This document shows, piece by piece, positions 9,214-49,003 of a stretch of DNA of 64,000 bases. The stretch is from Shigella phage SSE1. The notes below the pieces were generated by a model. The model was not told the DNA's origin, made no database searches, and saw only the letters and a list, made by a program, of their open reading frames with translations. The DNA lies in the sequence record MK639187; one strand, given 5' to 3'. The position numbers were made by a program, and so were the translations under genes. The first letter of the stretch is position 1; every line of letters starts with the position of its first letter.

Positions 9214-9238
9214 GAACTCTTCGGAGTTCCTTTTTTGC
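9213..9238 (+). terminator. Intrinsic terminator (GGAACTC-TTCG-GAGTTCC, T6)
   Basis: Seen in sequence, upstream of gp47. Confidence 0.7.
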
Positions 9239-9282
9239 TTTATAAACGGATGATAGAATGAATTAACTAATGAGGAAATAAT

Positions 9283-18673: not shown

Positions 18674-19309
18674 ATGAAAACTACTCCTATTACTATCGCT
18701 ATTGACGCAATCATAAAACAAGCTTCTTCTTTGGCCGCTATGGCCAAAGTAATTAGTCAAAACCCTGCTCGTTATAATGCTATTCTAGAAACTCTTCGAC
18801 GCCCAGGGCTTAGTAATTATGAAAGCCGAGTAATTATTACAGGTGTTGGTAAGAATGCTAATATTGCAACTAAAGCTTCTGAGACATTTGCTTCACTCGG
18901 TATCCCGAGTATGTACTTGAACACCGGGCATTATTCTCACGGTGATGCAGGATTCATTGCGCCTAATGATGTGTTGATTCATATTAGTCGTTCTGGTAAA
19001 ACTGAAGAAATGATAGGCGTGGCTAAGCATCTTAAAATGATTCGTCCGAACGTCAAACAGATTCTGTTGCATTGTAACCCAGACATTCCACAAGAAAATG
19101 AAGCCCTTTTTGATTACTCTTTCTGTACAGGCATCGCAGTAGAGGTTGATGAGAATTCTCTGGCTCCGACTATGTCCACTACATTATTGTTAGCGCTTAT
19201 CGATACGTTTGCTATCAACCTTTCGTCTGAACGTGGATTTACCTCTAATGACTTCCTTAAGTTCCACCCTGGCGGTGCACTAGGTGCCATGTTACGAGGC
19301 GAACAATGA
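18674..19309 (+). CDS. SIS-domain sugar-phosphate isomerase, KdsD/KpsF (arabinose-5-phosphate isomerase) type, no CBS domains
   Basis: 211 aa; GVGKN, SRSGKTEE, APTMSTT, FHPGGALG motifs. Confidence 0.75.
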   Translation: MKTTPITIAIDAIIKQASSLAAMAKVISQNPARYNAILETLRRPGLSNYESRVIITGVGKNANIATKASETFASLGIPSMYLNTGHYSHGDAGFIAPNDVLIHISRSGKTEEMIGVAKHLKMIRPNVKQILLHCNPDIPQENEALFDYSFCTGIAVEVDENSLAPTMSTTLLLALIDTFAINLSSERGFTSNDFLKFHPGGALGAMLRGEQ

Positions 19310-19449
19310 AAGCAATAACAATAGGACTTTTACTATTGATGCTTGTCATGACTATCTACTGGAGCTTAACGGCTCCGGTAATGATTCCGACACTTGTAAT
19401 TGGATGGATTATGATTGGACTACAAGCAAAGTATGAATGCTTTAACTAG
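19306..19449 (+). CDS. Small membrane protein
   Basis: 47-aa hydrophobic ORF read by hand; ATG overlaps SIS gene stop. Confidence 0.35.
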   Translation: MKAITIGLLLLMLVMTIYWSLTAPVMIPTLVIGWIMIGLQAKYECFN

Positions 19450-19490
19450 AATAGTGTACAATACTCCTACTTACCAATGAGGACCACAAC

Positions 19491-21176
19491 ATGAAAAAAG
19501 CTGTTATTCTTGGTGCTGGACTGGCAACTCGTTTGTATCCAATAACGCATCATATTCCTAAGGTGCTTGTTAACTATAAACAAGACACTATTCTGAGCAA
19601 TTTGTATACAATTTATTCTGACCTTGGCGCAGATGAAATTATTGTAGTAGTTCATTCAAAATTTGCTGAAACTGTTCGAGCTTATTGTGAGCAAGAAGGG
19701 TTCAATGTGACTATTCGTACAGTTGATGAAGCGTATGGATCTGCTTATGCTCTTGCTAAATTACACAAAGATTTAGACGGCCATAATGTAATTGTTAACT
19801 GGTGTGATATTATTCCCGATTTTGGTTCATGGTCTTGGAATGTTAACGCAATCTATGTTAAGGGTAACGAATGTCGATATAATTTCGACGGTGAAAATAT
19901 CACTAACGTAGGTTCAACAGGTGGTAATGTTGTAGGAATTTATCAGTTCAAAGACTGGGAATTCTATATGGGTTCTACTGATGAGGAAATTCATGAATAC
20001 TGCAAAGGACGTGATTTCGTAGAATTCCTTTACAGCGGTGCATTCAATAAATCAGAGCTTATGAATCTAATTGATTTAGGTGATATGCCTAAACTTGAAA
20101 AAGCTCATGAAGTTCGTGAACTTAATCGTAGTTTTAATGCAGTTGAAATTGGTGAAGAAACTGTAACTAAATTCGCATTAACTGAACAAGGTCGAGCTCT
20201 TCAGAAAGATGAGATTTCATGGTATCTTAAAGTGAAATCAGATTCAGTTCCTCAGTTAGTTTCTGTTAATGAAAATAACTTTGAAATGGAACGCATTAAA
20301 GGTAAGCCGGCATTTGAATATATTAAATCCAAATCAAGCCTTGCTCGTCCACAAATTGTTGATGCAATTTTAGACGCACTGAAATTCAGCACAGACACTT
20401 ATTTTGTAAGTCCTGAAACTGTTCGTCGTGATTTCACTAAAGAATTCTATACTAAAGTTATTGATCGTTGTGAAAGTATTCAACCGTTGATTGATTCATT
20501 TGGTAAAATCACACATGTGAACTACACTAAGATTGGGCGTCTGAAGCCAATGCTGAAACAAGCTTTAGAACACCTTATTCGTTATCATAACCGTTCTCAG
20601 GGACAGTACTCTGTTATTCATGGTGACCCGAACTTCAGTAATACTATGATTACTGATAACGGCGAAGTCAAGTTTATCGACCCTCGTGGATATTTTGGCG
20701 AAACCAAAATTTACGGGCCAAAATTGTATGATGAAGCTAAAGTGCTTTATGCTGTTTCAGGTTATGATGAATTCAACGCTAATCCGACCTGGGGCCAGTT
20801 TACTATTGATGAAACAACTTGTAATGTGACTATTAACATCAATCCATTAGTTTACAAATATGGAAAGATGAGTTCGTTTAACGAGTATCATCATTTGGCA
20901 GTGGCAATTATCTGGATTGCATTAGGTGGTTATTTCAAGAATAATCCACTTAAAGCGGTAGCCGCATATTATAAAGGTATGGAACTTCTGACTAAGCAAT
21001 TACGTAACATGGGCCGTGTACTTCAGGACGGCTCTATTAGTTATGACGTAGCAGAACCTGTAACGGCTACTCTGATTACAAAAAATCCTGGTAAATGGGT
21101 ACTAACTGATAAAGAAACTGGTGTTTCCTATCGTCCAATCGGTGGCGATATCACTCATCAATGGGAACGAATCTAA
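19491..21176 (+). CDS. Bifunctional sugar-1-phosphate nucleotidyltransferase / anomeric sugar kinase
   Basis: 561 aa; N-terminal ILGAGLATRLYPITHHIPKVLV (NTP-transferase G-loop); C-terminal VIHGDPNFSN and IDPRG (APH/AmgK-type kinase). Confidence 0.7.
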   Translation: MKKAVILGAGLATRLYPITHHIPKVLVNYKQDTILSNLYTIYSDLGADEIIVVVHSKFAETVRAYCEQEGFNVTIRTVDEAYGSAYALAKLHKDLDGHNVIVNWCDIIPDFGSWSWNVNAIYVKGNECRYNFDGENITNVGSTGGNVVGIYQFKDWEFYMGSTDEEIHEYCKGRDFVEFLYSGAFNKSELMNLIDLGDMPKLEKAHEVRELNRSFNAVEIGEETVTKFALTEQGRALQKDEISWYLKVKSDSVPQLVSVNENNFEMERIKGKPAFEYIKSKSSLARPQIVDAILDALKFSTDTYFVSPETVRRDFTKEFYTKVIDRCESIQPLIDSFGKITHVNYTKIGRLKPMLKQALEHLIRYHNRSQGQYSVIHGDPNFSNTMITDNGEVKFIDPRGYFGETKIYGPKLYDEAKVLYAVSGYDEFNANPTWGQFTIDETTCNVTININPLVYKYGKMSSFNEYHHLAVAIIWIALGGYFKNNPLKAVAAYYKGMELLTKQLRNMGRVLQDGSISYDVAEPVTATLITKNPGKWVLTDKETGVSYRPIGGDITHQWERI

Positions 21177-21562
21177 TGCACCGTGTAGAAAACATGCTTA
21201 ATCTTTGTTTTGATGTCGACGATTGTATAACAGAGTGGAATAACAATCGTGATTACGTGAACTTCAAGCCAGACGTCGAAATGGTGACTGCCATTAATGC
21301 CCTGTATGATGCAGGGCATACCATAACGCTTTACACTGCTCGCGGTATGAAGTCAGTAGGTCCTGGTCGTATAGCAATTGACATTCTCCCAAGTCTGATT
21401 CAGAACTTGGCAAACATTGGCTTGAAGTACCATAATTTGCTAACACATAAACCAGTATATGATTGGATTATCGACGACAAAGCTATGCGTCCTGACGAAT
21501 TCAAAGCTCTTATGAATAAAGGCGAATTCGAAACATTTAAATCATATAAACCGAACCTATAA
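21176..21562 (+). CDS. HAD-like phosphatase (putative)
   Basis: 128 aa from ATG 21176 (TAATG overlap); FDVDD motif I-like, TLYTAR, IIDDK. Confidence 0.45.
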   Translation: MHRVENMLNLCFDVDDCITEWNNNRDYVNFKPDVEMVTAINALYDAGHTITLYTARGMKSVGPGRIAIDILPSLIQNLANIGLKYHNLLTHKPVYDWIIDDKAMRPDEFKALMNKGEFETFKSYKPNL

Positions 21563-21608
21563 TAATTTAAGTAAGACCTGCAAAAACCATCGCATCAACT
21601 AACGCGAG

Positions 21609-22778
21609 ATGCAAAAAATGAATACTTTTAAAATCGGAACGAATTTTGATTTAGCTCTTCTTGATAAAATCGTAGAGCTCAATAAAACTTATCCTAATAG
21701 CTTGATAAACGAAGTATACGGCTCTACAAGAGAAATGGCTTTTGTAGCAGCCAGACCTGATTTTAGGCTTCCTGACGTTGACAAAAAGATGTTAGAAGAT
21801 TACGTTAAACGTTGTAACGAATTAGGTATTTGCTTTAACTATACACTCAACACGATAAATCCTGGTTCAAAAAGAGAACTAGTCGAGTGGAAGAAGAAAG
21901 CTATTCAGGATTATGTTCAGTATCTTTGGTCAATAGGCGTATGGCGTATTACTATCGCTAACCCTGTTGTTATGGAAATTGTTCGTGAAGTCAATAAAGA
22001 CATTGAGATTGAAGTTTCAACAATTCTACATGTCGATGCTGTAACTCAAATCAAATACTTACATGACCAATACAATATCAAAAAGGTCTGCTGTGGAATT
22101 CATAAGAACCGTTCAGTTTCTTTCCTGAAGCGTGCAGCAGAGTTTTGCAATAAGAACAATATAATATTTGAAGTTCTTGTAAATGAGTTCTGTTCTAATG
22201 CTGGTAAAGGGTATACAACACATTGTAGCTATCGTGACTCTTGCTATATTTTCCATAGTACTGATGTTACAGTAGATGATGCTAAATCCTTAAACGGATA
22301 TCCTATGCAGCACTGTATTAAAGCTCGTGATACAGACCCATTTAACTGGTTGAGAACTCGTTTTGTTCGTCCTCAAGATTTGAAACTTTATAATGATATT
22401 GGTATCACTCAATTCAAAGTTTCAGGACGTACAGGTAGCACAGACTACATTTTGAAAGTTCTTGAAGCTTATGCTTCTGAAAAATTTGAAGGTAATTTGT
22501 TGGAATTGTGGAAGCCTTTAGAGACCATTTTCACTCTTGAAAATGAGACCGAGTTTTCACATACGGTAAATATTGAAACCTCTTTGTTAGATGGCTTTTT
22601 AGAAAAAAGGTGGTTCAAACATCCAGATTTCGATTGTGCTAATGAAATCTGCGGGACGACGTGTACATATTGTGAAAGATATTATAAACGTCAGTTATCT
22701 AAAAATGGGTTATCAGAAAATTCTATATCTATTATTGATATAACTAACTCTGACGACGCTTTGAGGTACCCAGAATGA
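21609..22778 (+). CDS. Cys-rich protein of unknown function
   Basis: 389 aa; Cys clusters EFCSNAGKGYTTHCSYRDSC and CANEICGTTCTYCERY. Confidence 0.55.
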   Translation: MQKMNTFKIGTNFDLALLDKIVELNKTYPNSLINEVYGSTREMAFVAARPDFRLPDVDKKMLEDYVKRCNELGICFNYTLNTINPGSKRELVEWKKKAIQDYVQYLWSIGVWRITIANPVVMEIVREVNKDIEIEVSTILHVDAVTQIKYLHDQYNIKKVCCGIHKNRSVSFLKRAAEFCNKNNIIFEVLVNEFCSNAGKGYTTHCSYRDSCYIFHSTDVTVDDAKSLNGYPMQHCIKARDTDPFNWLRTRFVRPQDLKLYNDIGITQFKVSGRTGSTDYILKVLEAYASEKFEGNLLELWKPLETIFTLENETEFSHTVNIETSLLDGFLEKRWFKHPDFDCANEICGTTCTYCERYYKRQLSKNGLSENSISIIDITNSDDALRYPE

Positions 22779-22936
22779 TTTCTAGAAAAACTTTTAACCA
22801 CCAACTTAACGAAGAGATTTTGACTACGAAAATTAACAGCAACGAACAAATTCTTAAAAAGGCCCTTATGGGCCTGTTTGAAACTAAAGCGGCTAAAGTG
22901 ATTAAAGAAACCTGTTCAACTAGAATACTACGCTGA
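22775..22936 (+). CDS. Small ORF, possibly a frameshifted gene (continuation to 23015 in +1 frame)
   Basis: 53-aa ORF; downstream frame codes a protein-like tail but has no start codon. Confidence 0.3.
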   Translation: MISRKTFNHQLNEEILTTKINSNEQILKKALMGLFETKAAKVIKETCSTRILR

Positions 22937-23056
22937 TGCATTTCTTCATAGTGTTCTTGGAAGTATCGATGCTGAAGCTTTACGTTATATCAACATCGCT
23001 AAGAAATTCAAATAAGCTTTATGAATTGAGTATATAATAACTGTATTGAGGTAAAC

Positions 23057-23773
23057 ATGGGAAAACATAACACAATGAAATATATTAAAGCCGCAGATTT
23101 TCAATCCGCATTTAAAGTTGTCAATCGTGAAATTTTAGAAAACCCGGAATTCGTTACTGATTCTCGTATTGGACGTTGTAATGAAATTGGGTCTATGACA
23201 GTAGTTGTTGATACCCCTTCATCATTCAAAATGTCAGACCCACGTATTAATCGCATCTCTTATGAATATGCTGAAGATTTCTGGAAATTTATGATTTCTG
23301 GTGGTACTGATGCAGAAGAAGCATTTAAGGCATATCCTAACGTTGCTAAATTTATTTCTAAACCTAAATCAGATGCTTTGCCTGCGAACTTCAACACTTT
23401 CTATGGTCCACGAATTGCGGCCCAGTTACCAGCTCTTCTCAAAGAACTTAAAGAGAAACCTAATTCACGAAGAGTTGTGTTTCAAATTCTTGAAAGTTCA
23501 GATCAGGCTTTGCTTGATTCGGACGAAACACTTGAATATCCATGTACTGACTCAGTGACTTATTATATTCGTGATGGTAAGCTTTATACCCACTGTCATA
23601 TGCGTTCTCAGAACTGTGCTGTTGTTATGCAGTTGGATTTTTATCTCCAAGGAAAATTACTTCATTATATCGCTAACGAATGTGGTGTAGAAGTTGGTGA
23701 TTATACTCATACCATGGTAAGTGCCCATGTGTTTGAACGTGATTTTGATTATGTTAAAGGATTCCTTGACTAA
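23057..23773 (+). CDS. 42: dCMP hydroxymethylase gp42 (thymidylate synthase family)
   Basis: 238 aa; PNSRRVVFQ and YPCTDSV...HCHMRSQN align with the T4 gp42 pattern. Confidence 0.85.
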   Translation: MGKHNTMKYIKAADFQSAFKVVNREILENPEFVTDSRIGRCNEIGSMTVVVDTPSSFKMSDPRINRISYEYAEDFWKFMISGGTDAEEAFKAYPNVAKFISKPKSDALPANFNTFYGPRIAAQLPALLKELKEKPNSRRVVFQILESSDQALLDSDETLEYPCTDSVTYYIRDGKLYTHCHMRSQNCAVVMQLDFYLQGKLLHYIANECGVEVGDYTHTMVSAHVFERDFDYVKGFLD

Positions 23774-24672
23774 TGGCTATTTTCCGCGTACCTATCTTGA
23801 GTATGCGGTCTTATGAAACTGGACAGTATGCTATCCTTAAGGATGGCAACTTCCAACTTCATTTGCACCGTGCTAATCCAGGTGATGTGATTACATATCC
23901 ACGTAATGCATCTGATATTAAAGAATGCGAACGTCTTTTTCCAGAATTTAAGTTTGTTCCATTATGGTATAAAGATAACGCGTATAACACTCGTAAATAT
24001 TTCTGGTCTGAAAATGAATTTGTGGTTGATTCATTAATTGCTTATTATGATTGTGATTTTCTAATCACAGATATCACCGGATATGACGGCTCTTTTGATG
24101 TGGAATTCAATTTCAATATCACTGCAGATCCTAATAAACCACGTTTTTATATTGACGAATTCTTAAAAACTGATATGTTGTCGGTTAATCGTTCACTTCA
24201 AACTACTGTGTTGAATGAACGTCAAAAAGAAGTGCTGGTTAACGCAGGTGCAGATGGTAATAAGATTATCGTAACGCAGAAAGTTATACGTCCTTCCATC
24301 ATGCAGCGTCTTGTAGGTGATTTGGCTCCTATTCATCTAGATGGTATTTTTCATCCATTTCGAATTAGTGACCCGTGCTATCGTTTTGAACAAGTGGTTG
24401 AATGCGCAATTCAATTAGGTCAACCGCTTTATATAACTGATCCAAATAATAGTTTCGACAGAAATAAGTATCCTGAAGAAGCGCTGATTCGAATTTTTAA
24501 TCCAACTAAAACTGAGTACTATCAAATTCTTAAAGGACGTCCGAAGATTCAATATTTCGAAAATCCTGAAGAAGTATTCCATCCAGGTCTTGGCGAGTTC
24601 ATCTACTTTAACGCTTTAATTTCTTCGCCGTATAATATACCTAAATATGAAGATGTCGTAATCGAGGAATAA
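23773..24672 (+). CDS. Unknown protein in the beta-glucosyltransferase position
   Basis: 299 aa, start overlaps gp42 stop; no similarity to T4 beta-gt recognised. Confidence 0.55.
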   Translation: MAIFRVPILSMRSYETGQYAILKDGNFQLHLHRANPGDVITYPRNASDIKECERLFPEFKFVPLWYKDNAYNTRKYFWSENEFVVDSLIAYYDCDFLITDITGYDGSFDVEFNFNITADPNKPRFYIDEFLKTDMLSVNRSLQTTVLNERQKEVLVNAGADGNKIIVTQKVIRPSIMQRLVGDLAPIHLDGIFHPFRISDPCYRFEQVVECAIQLGQPLYITDPNNSFDRNKYPEEALIRIFNPTKTEYYQILKGRPKIQYFENPEEVFHPGLGEFIYFNALISSPYNIPKYEDVVIEE

Positions 24673-24673
24673 A

Positions 24674-25222
24674 ATGGCTAAAATTATTTTAGTAGATGGC
24701 CCGGATAATGCTGGTAAAACAACTTTCATTAATGACATAATGGAAATTAGTGAAAGATATGTAAAGATTGATTTCCCTAAACGAACAGTTGATGGACGTT
24801 TCGATGTTAAGTCTCGAAATGAAGTTGGCTGTTTCGAAACGATGTTGAATTATTTAGACCCTACTAAGATTTATCTGTTAGACCGTGGATATATTAGTAA
24901 CTGGGTTTATGGACGTATTCGACAAGATGCGGACTCGGTTCTTGACGTTTATGAACAGGATTATGTTCGTCTTTGCCAAAACCATGATGTGTTCACAATT
25001 ATTTTAACACGTAACGAAATGACTGAAAGTTTTGAAGACGACCTTATTACTTTGTCTTCGTTCGGTTTTAATACAGTCATTTCATATTTTGAAGAGTTTG
25101 CAATTCATAACGAAATCCAAACGTATCAATTACTTAATCATGATGGTGCTAACAAAGTTATAGGATTTAATGCAAGCGAACGTAATAATTTGATTACAGA
25201 AATTATCAAATGGGCTCGTTAA
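24674..25222 (+). CDS. P-loop kinase, thymidylate/deoxynucleoside kinase-like
   Basis: 182 aa; Walker A DGPDNAGKTT, DRGY motif. Confidence 0.55.
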   Translation: MAKIILVDGPDNAGKTTFINDIMEISERYVKIDFPKRTVDGRFDVKSRNEVGCFETMLNYLDPTKIYLLDRGYISNWVYGRIRQDADSVLDVYEQDYVRLCQNHDVFTIILTRNEMTESFEDDLITLSSFGFNTVISYFEEFAIHNEIQTYQLLNHDGANKVIGFNASERNNLITEIIKWAR

Positions 25223-33742: not shown

Positions 33743-34264
33743 ATGCCACATTTCAACGAATGTAGTCAACTGATCGAAGGTGTTGATAAAGCAGAAGAAG
33801 CTTATTTTAATGCTCTGATTCATGAAGATAAAGACCCACTGCAGGTAATGCTTGATATGCAGAAATCTTTACAGGTTCGTCTGGCAAATGACAAGCCTGA
33901 ACATAACAAACATCCTGATGAATTAGCCACTGCTGGCGATGTTGTTGATTGGCTGCGTAATCAGAAAGATTATATTGATGATGAATTCCGTGAACTGCTG
34001 ACTTCACTTGGTGGTATGAGCAATGGTGAAAAAGCCGCTAGCTCTGTATGGAAGCCTTGGAAAGCTCAACATGCTGAATATCGAAATCGTCGTATCTATG
34101 AACTGTCTCCTGAAGACCAGCTTGAAATTAAATTCGAGATGATTGATATTCTGCACTTCGTTCTGAACATGTTCCAAGGTCTGGGTCTTTCTGCTGAAGA
34201 AATCTTTAAACTTTACTACTTGAAAAACCAACACAACTTTGAACGCCAGGATAATGGTTACTGA
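33743..34264 (+). CDS. 56: dCTP pyrophosphatase gp56
   Basis: Internal ATG 33743 after AAGGAAA; 173 aa recognised as T4 gp56-like. Confidence 0.85.
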   Translation: MPHFNECSQLIEGVDKAEEAYFNALIHEDKDPLQVMLDMQKSLQVRLANDKPEHNKHPDELATAGDVVDWLRNQKDYIDDEFRELLTSLGGMSNGEKAASSVWKPWKAQHAEYRNRRIYELSPEDQLEIKFEMIDILHFVLNMFQGLGLSAEEIFKLYYLKNQHNFERQDNGY

Positions 34265-43523: not shown

Positions 43524-45341
43524 ATGATTAAAAATGAAATTAAGGTATTGTCAGATGTAGAACATATTAAGAAACGAAGTGGCATGTATATTGGTTCTTC
43601 AGCCAAAGAAGCCCACGAGCGTTTTTTGTTTGGTAAATATCAACAAGTTGAATATGTTCCTGGTCTGGTTAAATTAATCGATGAGATTATTGACAACTCG
43701 GTTGATGAAGCTATTCGTACATCATTTAAGTTTGCAAATAAAATTGATGTGCAAATTAAAAATAATCAAGTTTCAGTGGAAGATAACGGACGTGGTATTC
43801 CTCAAGGTTTAGTTACCGACCAAACAGGTGAACAAATTCCTGGGCCTGTAGCAGCCTGGACTATTCCAAAGGCTGGTGGTAACTTTGGCGATGACTCTGA
43901 ACGCAAGACTGGTGGTATGAACGGCGTCGGGAGTAGTTTAACTAATATCTTCTCTACGTTGTTTACAGGCATCACGTCAGATGGCGAAAATGAAATCACT
44001 GTTAACTGTTCAAACGGAATGGAAAACAAATCATGGTCTTCTAAGAAATCTAAAGGTAAAGGCACTAAAGTAATCTTCACTCCTGATTTCACTTCATTTG
44101 AAGAGCATAATTTATCTCAAATTTATTTAGATATTACTTTAGACCGACTTCAAACATTGGCAGTCGTTTATCCTGACATCAAGTTCACATTTAATGGTAA
44201 AAAGGTTGATGGTAATTTTAAACGATTTGCTAAACAATTTGGTGAAGATAACATCATTCAAGAAAATGATAAAGTCTCTATAGCATTCACAACATCACCA
44301 GATGGCTTCCGTCATTTAACTTATGTGAATAACATCCATACTAAAAATGGTGGTCATCATGTTGAATGCGTAATGGATGATATCTGCGAACATCTTTTGC
44401 CAGGTATTAAAAAGAAATATAAGGGTATTGAAGTCACTAAAGCTCGTGTTAAAGAATGTCTCACAATGTTGATGTTTATTAGAGACATGAGCAATATGCG
44501 TTTTGATTCTCAGACTAAAGAACGTTTAACGTCAACGTATGGTGATATTCGTAATCATATCCAATTAGATGCTAAGAAAATTGCTCAGGCACTTCTTAAA
44601 AACGAAGCCTTGATTATGCCTATTGTTGAAGCAGCATTAGCTCGTAAATTGGCGGCAGAAAAGGCTGCGGAAACTAAAGCAGCTAAAAAGGCAACTAAAG
44701 CTAAGGTTCATAAGCATATTAAAGCTAACCAATGTGGTAAAGACGCAGATACGACATTGTTCTTAACAGAAGGTGATTCGGCAATTGGTTATCTCATTGA
44801 TGTTCGTGACCGTGAACTACACGGCGGATTCCCATTACGTGGTAAGGTGATGAATAGCTGGGGTATGTCGTATGCTGATATGATGAAGAACAAAGAGCTC
44901 TTTGATATCTGTGCTATCACAGGTCTTATTCTTGGTGAAAAGGCAGAGAATACGAACTATCGTAATATTGCAATTATGACCGATGCCGATCATGATGGTC
45001 TTGGAAGTATTTATCCGGCTTTGCTTGCTTTCTTTAGTAATTGGCCCGAATTGTTCGAACAAGGACGTATTCGCTTTGTTAAAACGCCTGTAATTATTGC
45101 ACAAATTGGCAAAACTCAAAAATGGTTTTATACTGTAGCTGAGTATGAAGAAGTTAAAGATACACTGCCTAAGCATAGTATTCGATACATCAAGGGATTG
45201 GGCTCCCTTGAAAAGTCAGAATATCGTGAAATGATTCAGAATCCTGTGTACGACGTAGTTAAACTTCCTGAAAATTGGAAAGAACTCTTTGAAATGTTGT
45301 TGGGTGATGATTCAGAACTTCGTAAAGAATGGATGTCCTAA
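43524..45341 (+). CDS. 39: DNA topoisomerase II large subunit (GyrB-like), gp39 and gp60 equivalents in one ORF
   Basis: 605 aa; GHKL ATPase N-terminus and TOPRIM C-terminus in a single frame. Confidence 0.9.
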   Translation: MIKNEIKVLSDVEHIKKRSGMYIGSSAKEAHERFLFGKYQQVEYVPGLVKLIDEIIDNSVDEAIRTSFKFANKIDVQIKNNQVSVEDNGRGIPQGLVTDQTGEQIPGPVAAWTIPKAGGNFGDDSERKTGGMNGVGSSLTNIFSTLFTGITSDGENEITVNCSNGMENKSWSSKKSKGKGTKVIFTPDFTSFEEHNLSQIYLDITLDRLQTLAVVYPDIKFTFNGKKVDGNFKRFAKQFGEDNIIQENDKVSIAFTTSPDGFRHLTYVNNIHTKNGGHHVECVMDDICEHLLPGIKKKYKGIEVTKARVKECLTMLMFIRDMSNMRFDSQTKERLTSTYGDIRNHIQLDAKKIAQALLKNEALIMPIVEAALARKLAAEKAAETKAAKKATKAKVHKHIKANQCGKDADTTLFLTEGDSAIGYLIDVRDRELHGGFPLRGKVMNSWGMSYADMMKNKELFDICAITGLILGEKAENTNYRNIAIMTDADHDGLGSIYPALLAFFSNWPELFEQGRIRFVKTPVIIAQIGKTQKWFYTVAEYEEVKDTLPKHSIRYIKGLGSLEKSEYREMIQNPVYDVVKLPENWKELFEMLLGDDSELRKEWMS

Positions 45342-45364
45342 GCTCCTTCGGGAGCTTCATTTTA
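45341..45364 (+). terminator. UUCG hairpin after gp39 (AGCTCC-TTCG-GGAGCT)
   Basis: Weak T-run. Confidence 0.4.
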
Positions 45365-45383
45365 ATTTTAATAAGGCTTAATT

Positions 45384-46484
45384 ATGAAAGTTATGTTTAT
45401 CCCATCTCGTGCAGTCCCATTTAATCCTGACCGTGTACAAGGTGGCCTTGAAGCAGTACATTTAAATGTGTTGAAATATCTTGTGTCCATCGGTGCTGAT
45501 ATTGATTATATCGGCTTTGATAATGACACGTTTGGTGACTGGAAAGTTACACACCATCCTGTTGGTCATCTGGCTAAATTCAGTCTAGGTATGAGTTATA
45601 CTATGGCTCGTAAGATTGTTGAACTAGCCAGCATTAATGAATACGATTTCGTTGTTACAATGGAACCGACCAAACTAACGGTCCAAGCAATTAAAGATGC
45701 TGGACTCTCTAAAGTTCATAAGAATTTTATGGCTACACCGTTTGAACCGGTGTCTCGTGGTATTGTTCAAATTTGGGATCAGACTATCCAGATTCACAAG
45801 AACGGTGGGAAGAGCTATGCTCCTACTAAAGCATTCCGTGAATTTGAACGTAAATATTGTCATATGACTTCAGCTCTTACTGACAAAATTGATTATGACT
45901 ACTGGCGTGAAAATCCATTATTTGAACCTGATGACTACCCGGTTATTTGTTTGAATGAAAAACCTGAAGTTCTTCCGGCAACTGAGTTGATTATTAGTGC
46001 TCAACGTTATGACACTAAGATGCGTCGCACTGATGTTGCTCTTGAAGCAATTAAAGCACTAGGCGAAAATGGTATTGGTTATTGTCCAAGCAAATGGGCA
46101 CCACCAGCTAAATATCCTGTTATTATTGATGCTCCACACAGTGAAATCATGGAACGTCTTAAAACAGCTAAAGCACTTATTAATACATGCCCTGACACAG
46201 GTACGGTAGAGAATAGTTCTATTGAAGCTATCTCTAAAGGTGTCCCCGTAATCCAGTTAGTTTTTAAGGATTATCCTCATGCGACATTCGAATACGACCC
46301 AGATACTGTGCGTGTAGAAATTGATTCCTCTACTCCTAAGAAAGAAGTAGTTGCGCTTTACACAAAAGCTGTATTAGAATTCACTGACACATACGAAGCT
46401 CGAGTTAAACGTGCTGAAGCAGTATGGAAGAAGTATAACCGAGATGCAGTTGTTGCGATGTGGGATAAAATCTTCACAGCGTAA
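45384..46484 (+). CDS. Putative GT-B-fold glycosyltransferase
   Basis: 366 aa; TGTVENSSIEAISKGVPVI resembles the GT-B donor-binding E-x7-E region. Confidence 0.5.
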   Translation: MKVMFIPSRAVPFNPDRVQGGLEAVHLNVLKYLVSIGADIDYIGFDNDTFGDWKVTHHPVGHLAKFSLGMSYTMARKIVELASINEYDFVVTMEPTKLTVQAIKDAGLSKVHKNFMATPFEPVSRGIVQIWDQTIQIHKNGGKSYAPTKAFREFERKYCHMTSALTDKIDYDYWRENPLFEPDDYPVICLNEKPEVLPATELIISAQRYDTKMRRTDVALEAIKALGENGIGYCPSKWAPPAKYPVIIDAPHSEIMERLKTAKALINTCPDTGTVENSSIEAISKGVPVIQLVFKDYPHATFEYDPDTVRVEIDSSTPKKEVVALYTKAVLEFTDTYEARVKRAEAVWKKYNRDAVVAMWDKIFTA

Positions 46485-46576
46485 ATCCTGAATAGCCTGA
46501 GGCACTATTACACATAAGATGATAGATTATATGGTCTTTAGTAATAGTGCCCTAGGAATCTACTGAAGAGAATATT

Positions 46577-46777
46577 ATGAGAACATATAACGTGGACTTG
46601 GACCTTTTTGATAAAGCGGTGCTCCGGGAATTCCGGCTTATCCAAAGATTTTTTGATATCGAGTCGGCAGAGTCCTTTAAAGAACGCTTTAAAGAAATTC
46701 GATATAAAATACAAACCGATACAGCTACTAAAGAAGAACTTCTTGAAGTAGCAGAAATTTTTAAACGTAACTTGTGA
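46577..46777 (+). CDS. Hypothetical protein (rIIA.1-like position)
   Basis: 66-aa ORF. Confidence 0.45.
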   Translation: MRTYNVDLDLFDKAVLREFRLIQRFFDIESAESFKERFKEIRYKIQTDTATKEELLEVAEIFKRNL

Positions 46778-46789
46778 TGAGAGAAAAAT

Positions 46790-49003
46790 ATGATTATTGA
46801 AACGGCTAAAGAAACGATTATTGGTTCAGGCGGTAAGAGCACAGCATTTACTATTCAAGGCAATAGCAAAGTTTATAAGATTTTGTCTAATGACCTTTAT
46901 ACAAACAAAGAATTGGCTTGTGTACGTGAATTAATCACAAACTGTATCGATGGTCAAATTCTTAATGGTTGCACTGATAAGTTTATTGTTCAGGCTCCAG
47001 GTCGTTTAGACCCACGTTTTGTAGTTCGAGACTTTGGTCCTGGTATGAGTGATTTCACCATTCGAGGTAATGACGAAGAGCCAGGAATCTATAACTCATA
47101 TTTTGCTTCAACTAAAACATCGAGTAACGATTTCATTGGTGGATTCGGTCTCGGCTCTAAAGCTCCACTAGCATATACCGATACGTTTAACCTTACGTCT
47201 TATCACAATGGTGAAGTTCGTGGTTATGTAATCTACCAAGATGACACAGGTCCACAGATTAAGCCGACCTTTGTAGATAAGATGGGTCCTGATGACCGTA
47301 CGGGTGTAGAAGTAGTTGTACCGGTTAACCCGGAAGATTTTGAAAAGTTTGCATCCGAAATTGCATATGTTATGCGTCCTCTAGGTGATATTGCAGAAGT
47401 TCGTGGTGTTAAAGATATTAAATACTTCCCAGAATTTGATGATGTATATTTGGCCAAGGAAGCTCCATGGGGTGAACGTGGTAATATCATGGCTGTTTAT
47501 GGCGGTATTGTATATCCAATCGGAAGTGTTATTAAAGAACAAACATGGATGATGACACGATGCACTACAGCTTATATTAAATTCCCAATGGGTGAACTAG
47601 ATGTTGCTCCGTCTCGCGAAGCATTGTCATTTGATAAACGTACAGTAGCAAATATCCATAAACGCGTTGCAGAAATCGATGCTAAATTGTTCGCTGAAGA
47701 TTCTAAGAAATGGATTGATTGTAAATACCCACGACATGTGTTCCGCGAAATTGATTCTCTTGGCTATACCGCTCGTAAATACATGGAAAAGGCTGGGTCT
47801 AATATTGAATCACTGAAATACTCTAAAGAACAACTAACTTATTCTGAGTTGTACAAACGTTTTAAAATGGGACCTGAGTGGTGTAATCTTGGTGTCGTAT
47901 ACGATATCGTTGAATCCCCTCGTCTTCGTCGTATTCGTGAAAGTGGTAGCTCATCATCAACCATTTCAATTAACAGCCTGATTGGCATTAACATTAAAAA
48001 CGTTGAAATTGTTATTGACGATGTTAAGGGACGCGTTCCATTAATGCGAGCTCTTAATTCAATTGAAATGTCTAAAGACGAGGTTAAATTATCCGGTAAA
48101 GTTCCACGCGGTTTTGGTAAAAGCGTACTATTCGTTGACCCTACAGACGAAGACGCAATGAAACTTCTGGAACGCCTTAAAGTTATCTTTGATGGCGACA
48201 ACATTAACATGTACAAGACTTCAGAGCTTTTACAAATCGTTAAGCCATGGATTGAAGTCAGGAAACGGACTAATGAGCCTCGTCCTAAATCCCCGAGTGC
48301 TCATCGATTCTTTAAGAATGAAAACGATGTTTGGGTATCAGAAGACCTCTTTATTCCGGCAAGTGAAGCAGATGAAATCCAAGGTTATGCTATAGTTCGT
48401 AATCGTTCTAATGCTGAATGTCTTGACGCAGATAAAGGTTGGTTGAACTATGACTCCAATTTCTTGACCCGTATTGCTGATTTGTCAGGTATTAAAGAGT
48501 TCACTGTAGTTCGTCCACAGATTGCTAAGAAAGTTCGTAAACTTGGTGAAGTAGAATGCTTGTTCGAAAAATCAATTAACGACTATATTACGCTAATTGA
48601 TAAAGTGGATTATGATGAGTATGTATCACCAAGTCGTAGAGCACAGCCTTATTTGAATCATATTACTCGTAATGAAGAGCTTAACTTCCTTAGTAAGTAT
48701 TTTAGCTCTAAAAACAAAGAAATCAGTAAAGATTTTGCAAAACTCTCAACAGTAAATAATCGTTGGGGATGGAATCGATTCGCAGGTGCTACTAATACAG
48801 ACCTGAATAAGAAGTTAGAATTGTGTGCTAAAATTTTCGATAAGCTTAAAGATAATGCTTACGATAATGATGATAAAATGGTTATTGAATTCGAAACCAA
48901 TTATCATATTGTGTCAGAATACATGGGACGACGTGGTACTCTTTCCAAAGAACAGGTCGCTCAAATCGTTAAATTCATGAAGGCCGTGGAAGCGGCCAAA
49001 TAA
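46790..49003 (+). CDS. rIIA: rIIA protector from prophage-induced early lysis
   Basis: 737 aa; ELITNCIDG GHKL-like N-terminus; adjacent to rIIB. Confidence 0.8.
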   Translation: MIIETAKETIIGSGGKSTAFTIQGNSKVYKILSNDLYTNKELACVRELITNCIDGQILNGCTDKFIVQAPGRLDPRFVVRDFGPGMSDFTIRGNDEEPGIYNSYFASTKTSSNDFIGGFGLGSKAPLAYTDTFNLTSYHNGEVRGYVIYQDDTGPQIKPTFVDKMGPDDRTGVEVVVPVNPEDFEKFASEIAYVMRPLGDIAEVRGVKDIKYFPEFDDVYLAKEAPWGERGNIMAVYGGIVYPIGSVIKEQTWMMTRCTTAYIKFPMGELDVAPSREALSFDKRTVANIHKRVAEIDAKLFAEDSKKWIDCKYPRHVFREIDSLGYTARKYMEKAGSNIESLKYSKEQLTYSELYKRFKMGPEWCNLGVVYDIVESPRLRRIRESGSSSSTISINSLIGINIKNVEIVIDDVKGRVPLMRALNSIEMSKDEVKLSGKVPRGFGKSVLFVDPTDEDAMKLLERLKVIFDGDNINMYKTSELLQIVKPWIEVRKRTNEPRPKSPSAHRFFKNENDVWVSEDLFIPASEADEIQGYAIVRNRSNAECLDADKGWLNYDSNFLTRIADLSGIKEFTVVRPQIAKKVRKLGEVECLFEKSINDYITLIDKVDYDEYVSPSRRAQPYLNHITRNEELNFLSKYFSSKNKEISKDFAKLSTVNNRWGWNRFAGATNTDLNKKLELCAKIFDKLKDNAYDNDDKMVIEFETNYHIVSEYMGRRGTLSKEQVAQIVKFMKAVEAAK

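Follow-up and report, generated by a model that had tools for sequence, protein, structure and literature searches.

Which of the glycosyltransferases of an RB69-like phage adds which sugar to the phage DNA, and to what acceptor, is the question raised by an open reading frame between gp39 and rIIA in Shigella phage SSE1 (sequence record MK639187). We analyzed a stretch of 64,000 nucleotides of this record, here called the window, in which an initial annotation had described the encoded protein as a GT-B-like glycosyltransferase and a candidate DNA sugar transferase acting on 5-hydroxymethylcytosine (hmC). Arabinosylated 5-hydroxycytosine shields the genomes of Mosigviruses and related phages from restriction enzymes, the Brig1 glycosylase, and DNA-targeting CRISPR systems, as reported in the cited literature, and this protection seems to be tuned by how many sugars each base carries, as seen in a comparison with MluCI (PMC13326640). 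Once the gene for the second sugar is known, the DNA chemistry of therapeutic phages becomes easier to predict from their sequences alone, and both the literature and the PDB already contain this information. The gene itself is a known one, with a DNA sugar transferase proposal dating from 2018 and an ortholog structure released in 2025; the value for the window lies in its correct annotation.

A conserved gene between gp39 and rIIA

The open reading frame occupies positions 45384..46484 of the plus strand, begins with ATG, and encodes 366 amino acids, so that its position, length, and placement are exactly those given by the initial annotation. Upstream, gp39, the fused large subunit of topoisomerase II (43524-45341), ends 42 nt before the start codon, and downstream, rIIA.1 (46577-46777) follows after 92 nt and is in turn followed by rIIA (46790-49003). 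A topoisomerase large subunit on one side and rIIA.1-rIIA on the other are the flanks that this gene has in Mosigviruses. Over a stretch of 5.6 kb around it, identity is 99.3% with Escherichia phage vB_EcoM-172859UKE1 and 97-98% with many RB69-like phages, and the window is, judged by its sequence, that of a Mosigvirus.

The locus at which RB69-like phages had been reported to carry a novel transferase proved to be this same gene, ORF003c of RB69. Using custom HMMs, a Phyre2 model, and HHpred matches to GT4/GT-B structures, Thomas et al. 2018 (PMC6024577) named ORF003c as the candidate RB69 arabinosyltransferase. Lee et al. (NAR 2026; PMC13326640) give RB69 gp3 the name 'beta-arabinosyltransferase 2' and list gp46:47 as the transferase that acts first. 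According to PMC13390438, two DNA arabinosyltransferases act in sequence, and the second is encoded by the gene that lies between rIIA and topoisomerase. In GenBank, it is a 'hypothetical protein' in most records and an 'ATP-binding protein' in one.

We found the 366-aa open reading frame at full length and at least 95% amino acid identity in 155 phage records. Its codons differ from those of RB69 by 61 synonymous and 12 non-synonymous changes, a pattern that we read as purifying selection. Because it is conserved in these 155 records, shows this synonymous excess, and has an ortholog in phage HY126 that has been expressed and crystallized, 45384..46484 is a genuine gene rather than a chance open reading frame. 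The base composition is unremarkable.

Between the gp39 stop and the start of the gene lies a hairpin, AAGCTCC-TTCG-GGAGCTT with a T-rich tail (45340..45367, plus strand), a putative terminator-like or RNA-stabilizing element; it is the single such site in the region, which is no excess over shuffled sequences (mean 0.9). Likewise, a promoter scan near the gene returned no more sites than were found in shuffles. On the other side, the 92-bp gap between the stop codon and rIIA.1 contains a perfect 11-bp inverted repeat, GGCACTATTAC ... GTAATAGTGCC (46493-46565, plus strand), with an AT-rich spacer of about 40 nt.

The protein belongs to a small phage family

The 366-aa protein is 96.7% identical to RB69p003 over its full length and 97% identical to the HY126 protein XAN60436.1, and it matches PDB entry 9iqz with an E-value of 1e-196. 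Moreover, all of its residues (1-366) align with PHROG 8302, a function-unknown family, at an E-value of 4e-220. We assign it on these matches to the RB69 ORF003c/HY126 glycosyltransferase family (PHROG 8302), hereafter the ORF003c family. The RB69 gp3 and HY126 orthologs differ from it by only 11-12 amino acid substitutions, none of which falls in the family-invariant columns that we checked.

Word-indexed searches for homologs, a profile search included, returned no more than 5-6 clusters, and an exhaustive search of 1.84 billion representatives returned 11 proteins at E <= 1e-10. With only 11 proteins found among so many, the ORF003c family is, as far as these searches can tell, small, narrow, and confined to phages. 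A Pfam scan of the 366-aa protein gave no match at E <= 10, an NCBIfam scan gave none either, and 12 family members compared with Pfam produced just two weak GT4-conflict matches, the better with an E-value of 0.0028. In a profile search of the PDB, sequence relatives were limited to 9iqz and 9ir0. One distant member (P0011) lies on a metagenomic contig of 4.5 kb, where its neighbors, a ligase, DsbA, and small open reading frames, are uninformative.

Two database records of family members deserve comment. The GenBank record of the HY126 ortholog (PP658200.1) reads KGVLGIQ around residues 288-289, where 9iqz and all other members read KGVPVIQ; this reading loses the nearly invariant P288, and the genome record is probably wrong here. 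Shigella phage JK45 (NC_054940.1, 1501-3104) carries a full-length ORF003c ortholog, then a copy of the intergenic sequence, and then the last 130 codons repeated in tandem. This duplicate is 100% identical to residues 237-366 of the 366-aa protein and has its own annotation, as a 136-aa hypothetical protein, in a record that is classed as Tequatrovirus despite its Mosigvirus-type gene order.

A GT-B fold with a UDP-binding C-terminal domain

The crystal structures 9iqz and 9ir0 are 98% identical in sequence to the 366-aa protein, and their sequence equals that of the HY126 ortholog but for two residues. Their titles, as given by Foldseek, are 'phage HY126 glycosyltransferase' (9iqz, the apo form) and the same 'with UDP' (9ir0), and both were released on 2025-07-16. 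A near-identical relative of the thymidylate synthase homolog of the window is found in entries 9iqc, 9iqu, and 9ir2, whose codes are close to those of 9iqz and 9ir0; this is consistent with a study of HY126 by He et al. that is cited in the literature.

Structure prediction, which the initial annotation had proposed as a check, returned the same architecture. An AlphaFold model from 6 sequences was poor (pLDDT 57) and was set aside, and the model built with a 12-sequence family alignment reached a pLDDT of 91.2 and a pTM of 0.87. The protein folds into two Rossmann-like beta/alpha/beta domains separated by a cleft, with a C-terminal helix crossing back. The crystal structure of the ortholog and the prediction agree, and the 366-aa protein is a GT-B glycosyltransferase. 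UDP is bound in the 98%-identical ortholog (9ir0), and the motif at residues 272-290 of the C-terminal domain is conserved, which bears out the claimed GT-B resemblance and donor-binding motif. The peptide on which that claim had been based, TGTVENSSIEAISKGVPVI, is present at residues 272-290 (nt 46197-46253).

Three conserved elements stand out in the family alignments. The N-terminal domain carries the nearly invariant loop G20-G21-L22-E23 (VQGGLEAV; 45441..45452, plus strand), which is similar to the glycine loop found in GT4-type GT-B enzymes. The C-terminal Rossmann domain begins with the invariant Q207-R208-x-D210-xxx-R214 (46002..46025, plus strand), placed between a strand (203-206) and a helix (216-229) of the model, and by this position it is likely to be the basic pair that binds the diphosphate (R...K in GT4 enzymes). 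The third element is the donor-nucleotide-binding motif T272-GTVENSSIEAISKGVPV-I290 (46197..46253, plus strand), in which G273, T274, E276, S279, E281, A282, and G286 are invariant in the 12-sequence alignment. We aligned the family by hhalign with its sole remote sequence relative, a Pfam Glycos_transf_1 protein (P0017), at a probability of 94% over 83 columns only. Here, E281-A282 fell on the second Glu-Ala of the GT4 EX7E motif, with E281 being invariant; the position of the first Glu is taken by T272/G273 in 12 of 12 sequences.

Besides HY126, the nearest solved folds are sucrose-phosphate synthase (6kih), BshA, PimA, WaaG/WaaB, and similar enzymes, and in structural comparisons GT4 enzymes were the closest neighbors, nearer than the T4 glucosyltransferases. 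Identity to GT4-type GT-B enzymes such as sucrose-phosphate synthase, BshA, PimA, WaaG, and BGluT is 10-14%. The PF00534 (Glycos_transf_1) HMM gave no significant match to the 366-aa protein. The first EX7E Glu is absent and Pfam and NCBIfam give no match; therefore, the protein is GT4-like in fold and is not filed as a GT4 member.

The window encodes the arabinosylation pathway

Mapping of the RB69 proteins located the whole RB69 modification cluster in the window at 18674-25222 and the dCTPase gp56 at 33743-34261; as a Mosigvirus gene, the 366-aa open reading frame lies about 20 kb from this cluster. All genes of the cluster described here are on the plus strand. An arabinose-5-phosphate isomerase (18674..19309), the ortholog of RB69 gp55 (100% identical to RB69p055, with a SIS domain), is predicted to take the first step to UDP-D-arabinofuranose (PMC13326640). 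It is followed by a 561-aa bifunctional sugar kinase/UDP-arabinose pyrophosphorylase (19491..21176), an AfhE-like homolog of RB69 gp53:52 (PMC13326640) which matches NTP_transferase and, weakly and below the curated cut-offs, kinase-family models. Next comes an AfhF-like phosphatase of HAD type, the homolog of RB69 gp51 (21176..21562; PMC13326640), which matches TIGR01689, a capsule-biosynthesis phosphatase subfamily, with an E-value of 4e-13 that is under the cut-off of this model. The cluster ends with a 299-aa glycosyltransferase homologous to RB69 gp46:47 (23773..24672) and a thymidylate-type nucleotide kinase orthologous to RB69 gp45 (24674..25222; 98.9% identical to RB69p045; PMC13326640). 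From the RB69 mapping, its distribution, and PMC13326640, the 299-aa protein is the proposed first (alpha) arabinosyltransferase on 5-hydroxycytosine, and the literature assigns the first arabinosylation step to gp46:47 (PMC13326640, PMC13390438). BLASTP detected no similarity between the 299-aa glycosyltransferase and the ORF003c-family protein. Together with the predicted 5-hydroxy-dCMP (5hodCMP) synthase described below, the UDP-arabinose genes and the primary arabinosyltransferase are all present in the genome that encodes the 366-aa protein.

Some genes of the cluster differ in their reading frames from the RB69 reference. The homologs of RB69 gp47+gp46 and gp53+gp52 are single uninterrupted open reading frames in the window (299 aa and 561 aa), which confirms the statement in the literature that these genes are split in the RB69 reference by sequencing errors. 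The homolog of RB69p049 (22775-23012, plus strand), a small open reading frame between the U32 gene and the thymidylate synthase homolog, aligns as two pieces that overlap and are in different frames (93.6% for residues 1-47 and 65.6% for residues 19-79), which points to a frameshift or an indel with respect to the RB69 reference.

The U32 gene (21609-22778, plus strand) encodes a 389-aa Peptidase_U32-family protein orthologous to RB69 gp50 (Pfam E-value 6e-11), with weak similarity to UbiU and Cys-rich stretches near the C-terminus. It lies inside the 5-hydroxycytosine/arabinose cluster, is present in Serratia phage 92A1, and is absent from the cluster of Acinetobacter phage DLP1. U32 proteins (UbiU/V, RlhA, TrhP) are O2-independent hydroxylases, and their reactions include the C5-hydroxylation of RNA pyrimidines. 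By analogy, the phage protein could provide an anaerobic route to 5-hydroxycytosine beside the O2/flavin-dependent synthase; the gp50-type protein is named merely a 'sugar or heterocycle reductase' in PMC13326640.

The acceptor base is most likely arabinosylated 5-hydroxycytosine

By MS/MS and NMR, RB69 DNA was found to carry beta-D-Araf-(1-3)-alpha-D-Araf ether-bonded to 5-hydroxycytosine, not hydroxymethylcytosine (PMC13326640). In Mosigvirus DNA generally, arabinose is O-linked directly to 5-hydroxycytosine (PMC13326640, PMC13390438), and the older ara-hmC assignment is called erroneous in PMC13390438. The hydroxyl is put on dCMP by a flavin-dependent thymidylate synthase homolog, and the activity of RB69 gp48 is marked as experimentally confirmed (PMC13326640). 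The window encodes the gp48 ortholog, a predicted 5hodCMP synthase (23057..23773, plus strand; 98.7% identical to RB69p048, with a Pfam Thymidylat_synt match and nearly identical to PDB 9iqc/9ir2/9iqu). When aligned, this protein reads MRSQN...QLD, compared with QRSCD...PFN in E. coli ThyA and MRSND...RND in T4 gp42. It thus has Asn at the position of E. coli ThyA D169 (RSQN), where T4 gp42 retains Asp (RSND), and Asn at this position is a predictor of 5hodCMP synthases (Lee et al., PMC13326640). The DLP1 homolog of the confirmed 5hodCMP synthase of Acinetobacter phage DLP3 has the same Asn, unlike T4 gp42. Moreover, the position of ThyA N177 is occupied by Asp, which gives cytosine specificity. 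Since ara-hmC has been corrected in the literature and the window carries the 5hodCMP synthase signature, an hmC acceptor is unsupported, and the acceptor base is most likely arabinosylated 5-hydroxycytosine.

The T4 alpha- and beta-glucosyltransferases (GT72, GT63) would share with the 366-aa protein the GT-B fold, a UDP-sugar donor, and the post-replicative decoration of a modified cytosine. An enzyme of the T4 kind, one that transfers glucose or arabinose to 5-hydroxymethylcytosine in DNA, is nevertheless extremely improbable here: the base has been re-assigned to arabinosyl-5-hydroxycytosine (PMC13326640, PMC13390438), the thymidylate synthase homolog of the window has the 5hodCMP synthase signature and not that of T4 gp42, and the 366-aa protein has no sequence similarity to the T4 enzymes and is structurally nearer to GT4 enzymes. 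BLASTP and tblastn searches of the window with T4 alpha-gt and beta-gt found no homolog, with best E-values of at least 1.8. Hence, the statement of the initial annotation that the window lacks a T4-type glucosyltransferase holds at the sequence level (best E 1.8), with a different glycosyltransferase present at 23773-24672. Its 'hmC DNA sugar transferase' keeps the DNA sugar transferase, the gene being RB69 ORF003c, and loses the hmC, the base being 5-hydroxycytosine (PMC13326640, PMC13390438). At the place equivalent to the T4 a-gt locus, the homologs of a-gt.2 and gene 47 are only about 70 bp apart. In this gap, where T4 has mobB, a-gt, and 47.1, we observed a hairpin, GGAACTC-TTCG-GAGTTCC with a T-run (9215-9240, plus strand), of the same UUCG-tetraloop style as the one at 45340-45357 between gp39 and the 366-aa open reading frame.

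Copy number of the family follows the number of sugars

We found the 299-aa glycosyltransferase in 348 phage records, from phages of Escherichia, Klebsiella, Serratia, Proteus, Yersinia, Acinetobacter, and others. Serratia phage LC53, the DNA of which carries a single arabinose according to the literature, is among them. The ORF003c family was found in only 211 records, namely Mosigviruses, 55 Acinetobacter phage records, and one Tegunavirus, and the same record search returned it in 0 Serratia, Klebsiella, Proteus, and Enterobacter records. Each Mosigvirus has one copy, and each Acinetobacter record among the matches listed has it in two places. The DNA of RB69, NP, and Bas46/47, all Mosigviruses, is di-arabinosylated (literature including PMC13326640 and PMC13390438), and that of Acinetobacter phage DLP3 is tri-arabinosylated (PMC13326640). 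Copy numbers of 0, 1, and 2 therefore go with 1, 2, and 3 sugars, a relation that supports a chain-extending role of the family and argues against a base-proximal one. The record with an organism name that starts with 'Tegunavirus' would, if its match is real, be predicted to belong to a phage bearing more than one sugar per base; named Yersinia phage records, vB_YenM_TG1 among them, have only the 299-aa glycosyltransferase.

The base-proximal role, in which the 366-aa protein would be the first arabinosyltransferase on the hydroxylated cytosine, is what Thomas et al. 2018 (PMC6024577) proposed when they named ORF003c 'the' arabinosyltransferase from HHpred and Phyre2, and the GT-B fold and the UDP-binding ortholog agree with it. 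However, LC53 and all other arabinosylating clades outside Mosigvirus and Acinetobacter phages are without the ORF003c family, bar the one Tegunavirus record, and these clades retain the 299-aa glycosyltransferase adjoining the 5hodCMP synthase. As the copy number of the ORF003c family also follows the number of extra sugars and the later literature gives the first step to gp46:47 (PMC13326640, PMC13390438), we regard the base-proximal role as unlikely.

The Acinetobacter homologs connect the family to DNA. The two paralogs of phage DLP1 (DLP1_074/075) share 43% and 41% identity with the 366-aa protein over the full length and lie inside the arabinosylation cluster, directly after the kinase and the first glycosyltransferase. 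By gene order, DLP3 gp76 and gp77 are their positional counterparts in the DLP3 cluster. Together, gp76 and gp77 added a third arabinose onto RB69 DNA from UDP-Araf in vitro; each was inactive singly, and the activity was shown for the third sugar only and for the pair only (PMC13326640). Like the 366-aa protein, they are of the ORF003c family, and they add arabinose from UDP-Araf to DNA that is already arabinosylated. They differ in being two tandem paralogs within the cluster that form a third (beta-1,5) linkage, whereas a Mosigvirus has one copy elsewhere and two sugars.

A target other than DNA, of host or phage (LPS, lipid, protein, or small molecule), might be read from the nearest solved folds besides HY126 (sucrose-phosphate synthase, BshA, PimA, WaaG/WaaB), from the calculated pI of 6.2, which is not basic, and from the distance of about 20 kb between the Mosigvirus gene and the modification cluster. 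Nevertheless, the ORF003c family is restricted to phages with poly-arabinosylated DNA, is embedded in the DNA modification cluster in Acinetobacter phages, and has homologs there that modify DNA in vitro (PMC13326640). A non-DNA target is thus very unlikely.

Proposed reaction and its stereochemistry

We propose, with a probability of roughly 0.8, that the 366-aa protein is a soluble enzyme that uses UDP-D-arabinofuranose to attach the second arabinose. The fold, the UDP binding of the ortholog, the RB69 disaccharide, and the in vitro arabinosylation by the Acinetobacter homologs have been demonstrated, and we infer the second step for this protein, as the most likely assignment, from its identity to RB69p003, the pathway genes of the window, the phyletic pattern, the homolog activity, and the literature. 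A UDP-sugar would be bound in the C-terminal Rossmann domain, where UDP is seen in the 98%-identical HY126 ortholog. The donor would most likely be UDP-D-arabinofuranose, made by the phage isomerase, kinase/pyrophosphorylase, and phosphatase, and the acceptor would be 5-hydroxycytosine of the phage DNA that already bears one alpha-D-arabinofuranose from the 299-aa glycosyltransferase. The predicted product is beta-D-Araf-(1-3)-alpha-D-Araf-5-hydroxycytosine, the disaccharide found in RB69-type virion DNA, and the second sugar may thicken the DNA shield against nucleases and other defenses. Counting against the second-arabinose reading are the DLP3 activity confined to the pair and the third sugar, structural relatives of the retaining type, the missing first EX7E Glu, the lack of a Pfam or NCBIfam match, and the pI of 6.2.

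The linkage assigned to the RB69 ortholog of the 366-aa protein is beta and that of the first sugar is alpha, and the closest structural relatives of the protein are mostly retaining GT4-type enzymes. With a single donor, an alpha first sugar, and a beta second sugar, one of the two glycosyltransferases has to retain and the other to invert. GT4 enzymes are retaining and have a complete EX7E motif, whereas the 366-aa protein has an assigned beta product, Thr/Gly in place of the first Glu, and a sugar on DNA as its acceptor. The fold does not tell which of the two inverts, because both most closely resemble GT4-type enzymes (for gp46:47, PMC13326640). We suggest, as a tentative idea that is more doubtful than probable, that the 366-aa protein could be an inverting beta-D-arabinofuranosyltransferase on a GT4-like scaffold, with the lost EX7E Glu (T272/G273) and the invariant E276/S279 as a possible signature, and that its acceptor, a furanose already borne by a DNA base, might set it apart as a new CAZy-level family.
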